Source: Alphaproteobacteria bacterium
GTDB taxonomy: Bacteria; Pseudomonadota; Alphaproteobacteria; JAUXUR01
Direction: 5' to 3'
Length of the DNA stretch: 64,000 nt
Assembly: GCA_030696155.1 (NCBI GenBank)
Contig: JAUYSY010000029.1
Location: forward strand, 71,985-135,984
The notes under the pieces are model-generated. The model did not search any database. It had not been told where the DNA came from and was given only the letters and a program-made list of their open reading frames with translations. This document shows positions 5,251-51,408 of this stretch, in pieces (position 1 is the first letter of the stretch; every line of letters begins with the position of its first letter). The position numbers and the translations under genes are program-made.

Positions 5251-5371
5251 CTTCCTACATCCCGCGACTTGATCGCGGGATCCAGACGATCTTCCCTAAA
5301 GTTAACATTGTATAAATTGGACAATGACATCTTCTTTATTTACTTTCTGGATCCCGCGGACAAGCCGCGGG
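5251..5371. repeat. REP/RPE-like double-hairpin element (family R: cctacgtcccgcgacttgatcgcgggatccag...ctggatcccgcggacaagccgcggg)
   Basis: Two GC-rich hairpins in inverted arrangement; 119/121 identical to 38445-38565. Confidence 0.85.
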
Positions 5372-5721
5372 CATATCATTACCCATAAGTATGGCAACTC
5401 GTAGTTCTCAACGTCCACCCCAGCTGTTTCCCTGGATCAATGAGAGCCCAAAGGGCTCGAATGTGGATCCAGGGTCCAGAAATAATTATGATCGAAGATC
5501 ATACTAAATGTTTAAAAAACAAAGACATGCTCTTACGAGCATGCATTTTAATCTGGACCCTGGATTCTACTCGAAGCTTTGCTTCTCGCCTGTCCAGGGA
5601 AACAATGGGAGTAGAGAAAATTTTGAACATAAATTTAAAAATTCTCCCATAAATTGAATCGAACTATCCGAAAATAAATAATAAATATCAATAACTTGAA
5701 ACACTTGTGGGTAATGATACG
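5372..5721. mobile_element. Non-autonomous insertion with TIR CATATCATTACCCATAAGTAT, flanked by direct GCCGCGGG
   Basis: Left end 5372-5392, inverted right end 5701-5721; 8-bp direct repeat at 5364-5371 and 5722-5729; IHF consensus at 5686-5698. Confidence 0.6.
5425..5604. repeat. Palindromic element (family S: tgtttccctgga...tccagggaaaca)
   Basis: 12-bp terminal IR and internal ggatccagggtccag/ctggaccctggatt IR; relative at 29855-30029. Confidence 0.75.
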
Positions 5722-5930
5722 GCCGCGGGACGTAGGAGGTGAGGTAGGCAATAATTATTAATTATCAATATGTTAGTATACTTATGGGTAATGATATGGC
5801 CGTGGGGCGTAGCAGGGGGTGTTGGGTAGTTATTAATAATGATCAAAATGTTTTAAAAGCCATAATCGGATAGGGCCTTTCATTTTTTTTAAATTCTCAG
5901 TAAGATATAGTGATTTATGAGGGGATAAAA

Positions 5931-7082
5931 ATGATGACGCCAAATCGTTATCTTAAACGTATGGTTCTTTTTTTAATTGCAATCACATGTTTAAGTCTTG
6001 TTTTTATTGGTTCTATTAAAAATTTTTTTATGGCCAATCCGCTTCTCAATGGCGCTATTCTTTCTTTGCTCATATTCGGTATATTTTATCAAATCAGACA
6101 AGTCCTACTTTTAAAACCAGAATATAATCTGATTGAAGCATTAAAGCGACATCACGATCATTTGCCTCAAAACAGTGCAAAATTACGTCTTTTGAATTCT
6201 TTGTTTTCTATGCTTCGCGCAGAAAAAGACCAAATCAAGCTTTCCCCACAATCCTTAAGAACAGTTCTTGATGGTGTTGCATCGCGTCTTGACGAAGATC
6301 GTGAAATCTCTCGTTATTTAACCCGCATCCTCATTTTCTTTGGTCTTTTAGGCACGTTTTGGGGATTACTAGAAACCATTCAATCAGTCGGTGGCGTGAT
6401 TAATGCACTTCCTTCTGGTGAGGCAAATTCTGCATTGTTATTTGGTGATCTTAAAAACCAATTAAAAGCACCTTTAGGGGGTATGGGCACAGGCTTTAGT
6501 TCTTCACTTTTTGGACTTACAGGCTCATTGGTTTTGGGATTTCTTGATCTGCAAGCAGGACAAGCACAAAATCAGTTTTATCGTCAATTGGAAGATTGGC
6601 TTTCGACGCAAACGAAACTTACAAGCAATAAAATGATGGGGGAGGGTGATTCTGTTCCAGCCTATTTATCAGCGCTTTTAGAAAAAACAGCTGATAGTTT
6701 AGATCATTTAACAAAATTATTAAGCCAAGATGATCATAATAAACGTATTGTTGATGCACGTCTTTTGACGTTAACAGAAAGATTAACGTTTCTTTCAGAT
6801 CAAATGCAGACTGAACAAACAGTTCTTTTAAGACTTGCAGAAGGTCAGAAAGATATTCGCCCTATTTTGAAAGCCTTAAGCGAACACCTTGGTAATCAGC
6901 AATCAGGTTTTGATGAGATCACCAAAAATCATATAAGAAGTCTCGATCTTGCATTGCAACATCTTGTACAAGACGCAAGCCGTGGACGTGATCAATTTGT
7001 GAGTGAAATAAAAGGAGAGATTAGACTTTTAGCGCGGACTATATCTCAAGTGCAAAATGATAAAAATAGGGCAGCATTATAA
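5931..7082 (+). CDS. MotA/TolQ/ExbB-family membrane protein with coiled-coil C-terminus
   Basis: TM segments, IFFGLLGTFWGL and GMGTGFSSSLFGL; paired with the downstream MotB-like gene; ATG at 5931 (the ORF track starts at GTG 5910). Confidence 0.75.
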   Translation: MMTPNRYLKRMVLFLIAITCLSLVFIGSIKNFFMANPLLNGAILSLLIFGIFYQIRQVLLLKPEYNLIEALKRHHDHLPQNSAKLRLLNSLFSMLRAEKDQIKLSPQSLRTVLDGVASRLDEDREISRYLTRILIFFGLLGTFWGLLETIQSVGGVINALPSGEANSALLFGDLKNQLKAPLGGMGTGFSSSLFGLTGSLVLGFLDLQAGQAQNQFYRQLEDWLSTQTKLTSNKMMGEGDSVPAYLSALLEKTADSLDHLTKLLSQDDHNKRIVDARLLTLTERLTFLSDQMQTEQTVLLRLAEGQKDIRPILKALSEHLGNQQSGFDEITKNHIRSLDLALQHLVQDASRGRDQFVSEIKGEIRLLARTISQVQNDKNRAAL

Positions 7083-51372: not shown

Positions 51373-51408
51373 AATAGATCCCGCGGGTTTTGCCGCGGGA
51401 AGTAGGAG
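51373..51408. repeat. Family R half element
   Basis: tagatcccgcgggttttgccgcgggaagtaggag single hairpin. Confidence 0.65.

Follow-up and report, generated by a model that had tools for sequence, protein, structure and literature searches.

Insertion sequences (ISs) that target repetitive extragenic palindromic (REP) elements have been described in the IS3, IS110, IS4 (ISRm22), IS256, and IS5 families (PMC1525189). In case of ISRm22 of Sinorhizobium meliloti, which is assigned to the IS4Sa subgroup of the IS4 family, every copy is located within REP elements (PMC1525189), and the conservation of its target arm has been noted as well (PMC2266710). IS1111 resides in the QMITE2/GTAG REPs of Coxiella burnetii, a relative in the Legionellales, and is an example of an IS nested in a MITE (miniature inverted-repeat transposable element) (PMC5896051). 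Hallmarks of the IS50 subgroup of the IS4 family are a length of 1350-1550 bp, ends of the type CW------Y---CA-A--W-, and direct repeats of 8-9 bp (PMC2266710, Table 1), and for Tn5 nearly random insertion with only a weak palindromic preference was reported (PMC2229646). Here we describe a repeat cluster at 5.3 kb, in the spacer between phaC and motA, of a 64,000-nt stretch of alphaproteobacterial DNA (the window), which stems from the short-read assembly of a groundwater metagenome. All coordinates are positions in this window, and L-numbers denote loci from other genomes or contigs. The cluster was confirmed as a real feature. It very probably consists of nested MITEs, i.e., transposase-less deletion derivatives of an IS4-family IS of the IS50/Tn5 subgroup, that were inserted in the hairpins of REP doublets, here termed family R.

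Organization of the nested repeats

The cluster at 5.3 kb is composed of the following features (strand given where assigned; IRL and IRR, left and right terminal inverted repeat of the IS).

5251..5371, plus strand: family R, REP doublet as far as the point where its right arm is interrupted; 98% identical to 38442-38565
5364..5371: target-site duplication copy 1, GCCGCGGG; REP stem arm between loop ACAA and tag ACGTAGG
5372..5721, plus strand: MITE-B, putative 350-bp non-autonomous derivative of an IS50-subgroup IS, without transposase open reading frame (ORF)
5426..5603: family S palindrome inside MITE-B, with ends GTTTCCCTGGA and TCCAGGGAAAC; second copy at 29855-30029
5722..5729: target-site duplication copy 2, GCCGCGGG; exact, 8/8
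5730..5737, plus strand: resumed terminal tag of R, ACGTAGGA, directly after target-site duplication copy 2
5738..5798, minus strand: end of the IRL type, belonging to an outer MITE-A with 5' truncation (terminus 5778-5798); 87% identical to 38558-38642
5799..5812, plus strand: degenerate REP arm presumably hit by the outer MITE; 8-mer GCCGTGGG, then GCGTAG

Family R begins at 5251 with CTTCCTACATCCCGCG, and its right arm, which reads ...TCTGGATCCCGCGGACAAGCCGCGGG, is broken off at 5371. A sequence-only reading of this DNA had proposed that R is split at this position by a 350-bp insert with inverse ends and direct 8-bp flanks and resumes at 5722, that a palindrome lies within the insert, and that a further end with a degenerate arm follows. 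All of these points hold. MITE-B starts with CATATCATTACCCATAAGTAT, its right terminus is the imperfect inverse thereof (18/21), and the ends 5372-5392 and 5701-5721 are IRR-like and IRL-like, respectively. The two copies of GCCGCGGG are a direct and not an inverted repeat, as the reverse complement reads CCCGCGGC. The terminus of the further end is situated at 5798 and is succeeded by GCCGTGGGGCGTAGC. If 5372-5729 is left out, the remaining sequence aligns gap-free to 38439-38650 with 100% identity across the junction and 90% identity overall. Removal of the insert thus restores a gapless unit of R and IRL end, in the same organization as at 38445-38634, and MITE-B was therefore inserted precisely. 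Two hits resembling terminators, compared to 0.6 +/- 0.9 expected, coincide with the central palindrome of S (5525-5544), and a promoter scan gave no promoter-like signal above that of shuffled sequences.

The locus at 38.4 kb contains the other complete element.

38394..38411, plus strand: left arm of R', an R-type element, as far as the insertion site; 8-mer TCCGCGGC at 38404-38411, right after CCTACGT
38412..38634, plus strand: MITE-A (223 bp), composed of IRR-like end, 12 nt, R copy in full length (38445-38576), AT-rich stretch of about 40 nt, and IRL-like end
38635..38729, plus strand: remainder of R'; duplication copy 2, TCCGCGGG, at 38635-38642; right arm ends with ...GCCGCGGGAAGTAGGAAG

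MITE-A interrupts the left arm of R' (38394-38729) directly after CCTACGT, and the flanking duplication TCCGCGGC/TCCGCGGG matches in 7 of 8 positions. The nesting that the sequence-only reading implied for this locus has to be reversed, since here the element with terminal inverted repeats contains R and interrupts R'. The junction of end, AAACRCCACCCC, and R was found again in other contigs of two metagenomes, and MITE-A is therefore a propagating form rather than a one-off arrangement. In the proposed order of events, R' at 38.4 kb would have been hit by a MITE-A that holds R, and at 5.3 kb an R inside another MITE-A would have been hit by MITE-B, itself carrying palindrome S. The IRR end of the outer MITE-A at 5.3 kb is missing, most likely owing to recombination between R copies. 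Because MITE-A carries a complete R and thus two target arms, each of its insertions makes new targets, which explains the nesting.

Further copies of the repeat families are present in the window.

29855..30029: family S, second copy
51377..51407, plus strand: solo REP arm, CCCGCGGgttttGCCGCGGGAAGTAGG, unoccupied
53190..53306, plus strand: uninterrupted R copy, paralogous empty site; 34-bp hairpin as single-stranded DNA, dG -39.1 kcal/mol, z -9.2

In total, four R-type doublets and one solo REP arm occur in the 64 kb. R arms read CCTACGT-CCCGCG..CGCGGG-ATCCAGA, and in a doublet two such tagged, GC-rich arms, inverted relative to each other, enclose an AT-rich spacer. Family R thus displays the architecture of REPs and REPINs (REP doublets forming hairpins), namely an inverted tagged doublet, a long hairpin, and many copies. 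R contigs reach 60-100x and family S contigs about 45x the depth of unique sequence in the source run. A search of Rfam gave no hit above threshold. Below threshold, R (5261-5371, minus strand) resembles the Wolbachia sRNA WsnRNA46 (25.7 bits, gathering score 65.3), with which it has in common a long hairpin with GGAUCCAGAAA...CUGGAUCC. This likeness is a hint of a connection with the palindromic elements found in Rickettsiales.

The autonomous partner IS

The 18-mer core of the ends occurs six times in the window, compared to 0.1 expected. The sixth match (10966-10983) was rejected as an end, since it is a coding coincidence in the N-terminus of a flavoprotein (MITTHKYDVIIIGGG). A degenerate 18-mer scan of a genome collection yielded chance coding matches mixed with real ends. 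Among the matches listed, the 18-mer is present in many genomes, including Legionella copies and a distant IS clade, and wherever these loci show paired ends approximately 1.5 kb apart, the interior encodes a protein of 450-460 aa with the Pfam domains Tnp_DNA_bind, DDE_Tnp_1, and Dimer_Tnp_Tn5. The relative at L074 matches NCBIfam NF033590, "IS4 family transposase", with E = 1.6e-136. An exact 21-mer scan of metagenome contigs retrieved 17 loci. At four of these, the element is complete, shares the termini, and encodes about 470 aa in an intact ORF. These are listed first, together with copies from a cultured Legionella and a Legionellaceae metagenome-assembled genome (MAG).

L126: full-length IS, 1504 bp; duplication GTCGCGGC, 8/8
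L120: full-length IS, 1517 bp
L122: full-length IS, 1524 bp
L130: full-length IS, 1586 bp
L135: complete genome of L. birminghamensis; IS of 1508 bp with the same termini; duplication GCTGCAAC, 8/8
L043: Legionellaceae MAG; internally deleted copy, 1201 bp; duplication GCCTCGGC, 8/8

The copy enclosing a transposase, for which the sequence-only reading had suggested to look, thus exists in L. birminghamensis and in metagenomes, and in part in the source sample. The single transposase ORF (L126, L120, L130, and L135) comprises the motifs IQDTT, ADREGD, and YLCRWQIEIYFKILK, the last of which fits the pattern Y(2)R(3)E(6)K. The 470-aa protein aligns end to end with the Tn5 transposase 1MUH (residues 11-458, E = 1.6e-32), the precomputed Pfam domains are PF14706, PF01609, and PF02281, and homologues of 70-86% identity are plentiful in metagenomes, including "transposase Tn5 [Legionella birminghamensis]". 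The IS ends (CATATCATTACCCATAAGTA) fit the consensus of the IS50 subgroup at 7 of 7 specified positions. The same applies to the window ends at 5372, 5798, 38412, and 38634, while the end at 5721 has a G at position 2. Four of the elements (1504, 1508, 1517, and 1524 bp) lie in the length range of the subgroup, and one copy has 1586 bp. Judged by sequence, the window ends are those of an IS4-family, IS50/Tn5-subgroup insertion sequence.

The transposase ORF ends with ...AFGHTYG, and the codons CAT ACT TAT GGG TAA (then TGATATG) are situated within the right inverted repeat, as read at L126 (1567-1587) and L135 (2900-2920) and likewise at L120, L122, and L130. This placement of the last codons and the stop helps to explain the strong conservation of the terminus, which is thereby under both a coding and a binding-site constraint. 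Window end 5372 has 24 nt in common with the IRR side, and the AT-rich IRL type is represented by the ends 5721, 5798, and 38634. Both window elements (350 and 223 bp) are small and carry ends that are identical or nearly identical to those of the full-length ISs, as is usual for MITEs. A REP arm (CTACGTCCTGCGGtttatCCGCAGGATCC) is also found immediately inside the IRL of some ISs (L139, 12-80; L043, 2140-2214), in the same orientation as in MITE-A, which suggests how MITE-A originated. These ISs thus bring along a site of the kind that they target.

The autonomous element would accordingly be about 1.5 kb long, with ends of 19-21 bp (CATATCATTACCCATAAGTAT) and one Tn5-like DDE transposase of 470 aa (..H T Y G stop). 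By analogy with Tn5, a dimer of the transposase, provided in trans, would bind both ends, excise the element by cut-and-paste, and join it to the target with an 8-bp stagger. This agrees with the earlier proposal of a non-autonomous, REP-hairpin-targeting element whose transposase is encoded elsewhere; a Tn5-like partner IS is now known, and tblastn of the 64-kb window detected no transposase. The sequence-only reading had further assigned binding sites for integration host factor (IHF) to the right ends. The IHF consensus does occur at two window ends, but a role of such sites was rejected, since the motif is not enriched (18 occurrences in the window compared to 11.3 +/- 3.9 expected) and is absent from the IRL, the corresponding end, of 6 out of 6 full-length ISs and from the Legionella MITEs.

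In the source run, a contig of 1559 nt consists of a flank, the IRR, and a portion (about 1.1 kb) of the gene for a related transposase at a depth of 7.3, and a near-complete IS copy was present in a sister sample at a depth of 98.7. Except for L. birminghamensis, cultured Legionella contain IS fragments only. With an N-terminal fragment of L. fairfieldensis as protein query, only fragments of 53-159 aa were matched; intact copies surfaced only with a full-length metagenomic transposase as query. L053 of L. pneumophila fraseri was dismissed as a solo remnant end beside a tRNA-like sequence, without transposase. In the plasmid collection only distant relatives with at most 42% identity were found, annotated as "IS4 family transposase".

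Target site and alternative explanations

To define the target register, every distinct end of this type, about 25, was tabulated. The 8-mer adjoins (C)CTACGT in about 15 ends and the loop gACAA of the same hairpin in about 9. These flanks are the two sides of one site, so that the 8-mer corresponds to the stem arm between REP tag and loop. With few exceptions, the duplication coincides with this GC-rich arm, bounded by the CCTACGT tag on one side and by the loop on the other, and all three insertions in the window are situated in it. The element was inserted in both orientations. Exact 8-bp direct repeats were observed for the window (5364/5722), L043, L073, L109, L126, and L135. Due to the fact that the non-palindromic flanking repeats GCCGCGGG, CCCGCGGC, GCCTCGGC, GTCGCGGC, and GCTGCAAC are direct, they are true 8-bp target duplications and not extensions of the inverted repeats.

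We consider it unlikely that the same MITEs depend on a transposase that recognizes only CCGCGG, by a palindromic preference comparable to the weak consensus of Tn5, and that the association with REPs is incidental. The hexamer is indeed prominent. All five window termini abut CCGCGG or CCGTGG, as had been noticed in the sequence-only reading, and the flanks in other genomes, to which that reading had pointed as a check, place the ends on the same CCGCGG-type REP stem arm, most Legionella-type ends abutting CCGCGG or a one-base variant. CCGCGG also occurs 13 times in the window compared to 3.4 expected, in a genome of 35% GC, and 13 out of 13 occurrences belong to R-type repeats. Each R arm, however, contains two copies of CCGCGG, yet the insertions fall in the tag-adjacent one, and exact 8-bp duplications without CCGCGG (GCTGCAAC, GTCGCGGC, and GCCTCGGC) occupy the same register of the hairpin. 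In L. birminghamensis, for instance, the REP stem is GTTGCAGC and not CCCGCGGC, and the register is unchanged (acaa-GCTGCAAC-IS-GCTGCAAC-acgtagg). Since the register is kept at stems other than CCGCGG, the target looks like a REP site rather than the bare hexamer. Tag, stem sequence, and hairpin may each contribute to the targeting.

A chimeric path through collapsed metagenome repeats is a very improbable origin of the cluster, although the repeats are 40-90x deeper than the unique flanks (depth 6-10). Independent Logan contigs of the source run match 5361-5545 and 5527-6100 without a single difference. These contigs support the junctions of R and insert on both sides as well as the second end, the adjoining degenerate arm, and the unique flank towards motA, so that the misassembly considered by the sequence-only reading did not materialize at the diagnostic junctions. 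Furthermore, the architecture of end, 8-mer, and tag is found again in the complete genome of a cultured bacterium and in numerous assemblies unrelated to it, and the order phaC-motA recurs in a second MAG.

In this sister MAG (GCA_030680745.1), the flanks are about 96% identical, as determined in the source run of that MAG. Its spacer of approximately 570 bp is unrelated, with homology ending at the phaC stop (5222) and restarting near 5831. The spacer (L140, 2723-3290) contains hairpins of the CCTCTCCCC..GGGAGAGG type in place of R, so that another REP family occupies this intergenic position. In L132, which shows 86% nucleotide identity, neither R nor an end follows phaC, which is succeeded by other genes, and motA abuts recJ. 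Comparison of window positions 199 and 5869 with L132 907/908 therefore identifies the phaC-motA junction of the window as a synteny break, i.e., a rearrangement junction. Compared to L132, where recJ and glpX overlap, the window also has about 128 extra bases between these genes (1964-2101), probably another inserted repeat. In L133, an end is located at another REP, which lies after phaC; this REP is succeeded by ...CCTACGCCCCGCGGC/CATATCATTACCC, where the contig stops. From these comparisons, the cluster is lineage-specific and the turnover of the spacer is quick. The comparison of orthologous phaC-motA spacers recommended in the sequence-only reading thus yielded a sister MAG without the cluster, whose spacer is unrelated and not simply empty.

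Several observations weigh against a REP-targeting IS50-type element as the source of the cluster. A sublineage with identical 21-bp termini sits in other palindromes, GGGGTCAG/GTCCTGAC (L119, L124, and L122), and the CCTACGT tag is therefore no universal requirement. The join between the phaC flank and R (5289-5361) is bridged only by a high-copy contig of 79 nt. No clean orthologous empty site was found in the four relatives (L132, L133, L134, and L140), the spacer of the sister MAG being replaced wholesale; a paralogous empty site is present at 38558-38579. The IS contig of the source sample is partial and tied to the window genome only by similar depth (7.3 compared to 6-10), and no transposition was observed.

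The sublineage at other palindromes comprises L119 (2394), L124 (1783), L122 (22-1545), L114, and L125, with insertions at GGGGTCAG/GTCCTGAC or GTCAAG-T-CTTGAC. Distant relatives with ends CTTATCATTACCCACAAGT are located in CCCTCTCCCC-loop-GGGGAGAGGG hairpins (L041, 3825-4079; L004, 1251-1551; L097; L074; L044; and L028) of Deltaproteobacteria, Thermodesulfobacteriota, Thermotogota, Actinomycetes, and other phyla. In case of L041 (CCTTCGAGG) and L004 (GCTGGGGGG), 9-bp duplications at the apex of the hairpin match in 9 of 9 positions. L097 matches in 8 of 9, L028 in 8 with an offset of one base, and L074 and L044 have no clean 9-bp duplication.

The least probable of the explanations, that ends and REP arms form one composite resembling a bacterial interspersed mosaic element whose spread depends on a REP-associated tyrosine transposase or on recombination instead of a DDE transposase, could draw on the GTAG/CGTC-like tag of the R arms (CCTACGTC) and on the REP arm beside the IRL in L139 and L043, but the ends belong to a complete Tn5-like IS, the flanks are direct 8-bp duplications, which IS200/IS605-type elements are not known to make, and R copies without ends (53190-53306) exist as well as ends at other palindromes.

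For proteins that share at least 90% identity with the window's own, the label is "Alphaproteobacteria bacterium" and not Legionella, and the best named relatives of PhaC, with about 55% identity, are from Azospirillum. The occurrence of the IS, its MITEs, and R-like REP arms in both this host lineage, labelled Alphaproteobacteria, and the Legionellaceae suggests horizontal transfer between the classes.

Two further repeats of the window are separate from the cluster. A MITE-like family at 7-172 and 19451-19612, with copies of about 165 bp, 89% identity, and inverted ends TACCCAAAT...ATTTGGGTA, is unrelated to R, S, and the Tn5-like ends, and its first copy adjoins the recJ-side synteny breakpoint. 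A coding tandem array at 60638-60840 consists of at least seven copies of the 21-nt unit GATCCAARAAATCCAAAYCAR, which encode DPxNPNQ heptapeptide repeats in one frame, starting just past an ATG.

Comparison with known systems

The element had been regarded as undescribed in the sequence-only reading. This applies to the particular IS and its MITEs, for which no describing paper was found in the literature, and to these only: the family (IS4 family, IS50 subgroup) and REP-targeting ISs, with ISRm22 as an example (PMC1525189), are already known. The points that stand out are the fixed-register targeting of REPs by a Tn5-like enzyme and a MITE that bears its own target. Nested MITEs of an IS50-subgroup IS would name a mobilizer of abundant short repeats in AT-rich, probably host-associated environmental bacteria. 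Nested repeat clusters would build up because the mini-transposon carries the hairpin it targets, and such clusters would be sites of intergenic turnover and synteny breaks. Since Tn5 is a workhorse of genomics, natural hairpin-linked relatives could help to explain the site specificity of DDE enzymes.

Rather speculatively, a wide clade of Tn5-like transposases with the conserved end ..ATCATTACCCAYAAGT may take REP-type hairpins as fixed-register targets, namely the 8-bp tag-adjacent arm in the Legionella type and this alphaproteobacterium and, elsewhere, the CCCTCTCCCC-loop-GGGGAGAGGG apex with a 9-bp duplication (in copies with both flanks readable), and MITE-A and some ISs could seed their own targets. 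If so, a cut-and-paste DDE enzyme would capture its target guided by structure or tag, and MITE-A and the ISs could spread together with a REP family between Legionellales and Alphaproteobacteria.

With IS50/Tn5, the partner IS has in common a transposase that is homologous over its entire length, shows the same set of three Pfam domains, and contains both DDE triad and YREK motif, as well as 19-bp ends that fit the subgroup consensus, a length of about 1.5 kb, and a target duplication of 8-9 bp (PMC2266710). In contrast to Tn5, the group described here inserts in a fixed register in REP hairpins, generates duplications of 8 bp instead of 9 bp, has the transposase stop within the IRR, and possesses numerous MITE derivatives. 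ISRm22, compared by description, belongs to a different subgroup (5'-CA ends, IS4Sa type), and no MITE nesting was reported for it. IS1111, IS621, ISPpu9, and ISPa11 of the IS110 family likewise hit a REP or MITE hairpin specifically (PMC5896051, PMC1525189), but the IS110 family employs a DEDD recombinase, lacks terminal inverted repeats of the classical kind, and does not generate 8-bp duplications. An assignment to the IS110/IS1111 type does not fit the 21-bp inverted ends, the 8-bp duplications, and the Tn5-like DDE partner found here. Family R itself resembles REPINs and the GTAG- and CGTC-tagged REP doublets, which are also composed of two inverted tagged hairpins in one long fold and are high-copy and intergenic (PMC3116915, PMC3733652). 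The stem and loop of R differ from those of the CGTC families, which have 8-9-bp stems starting with AT and a CCA tail.

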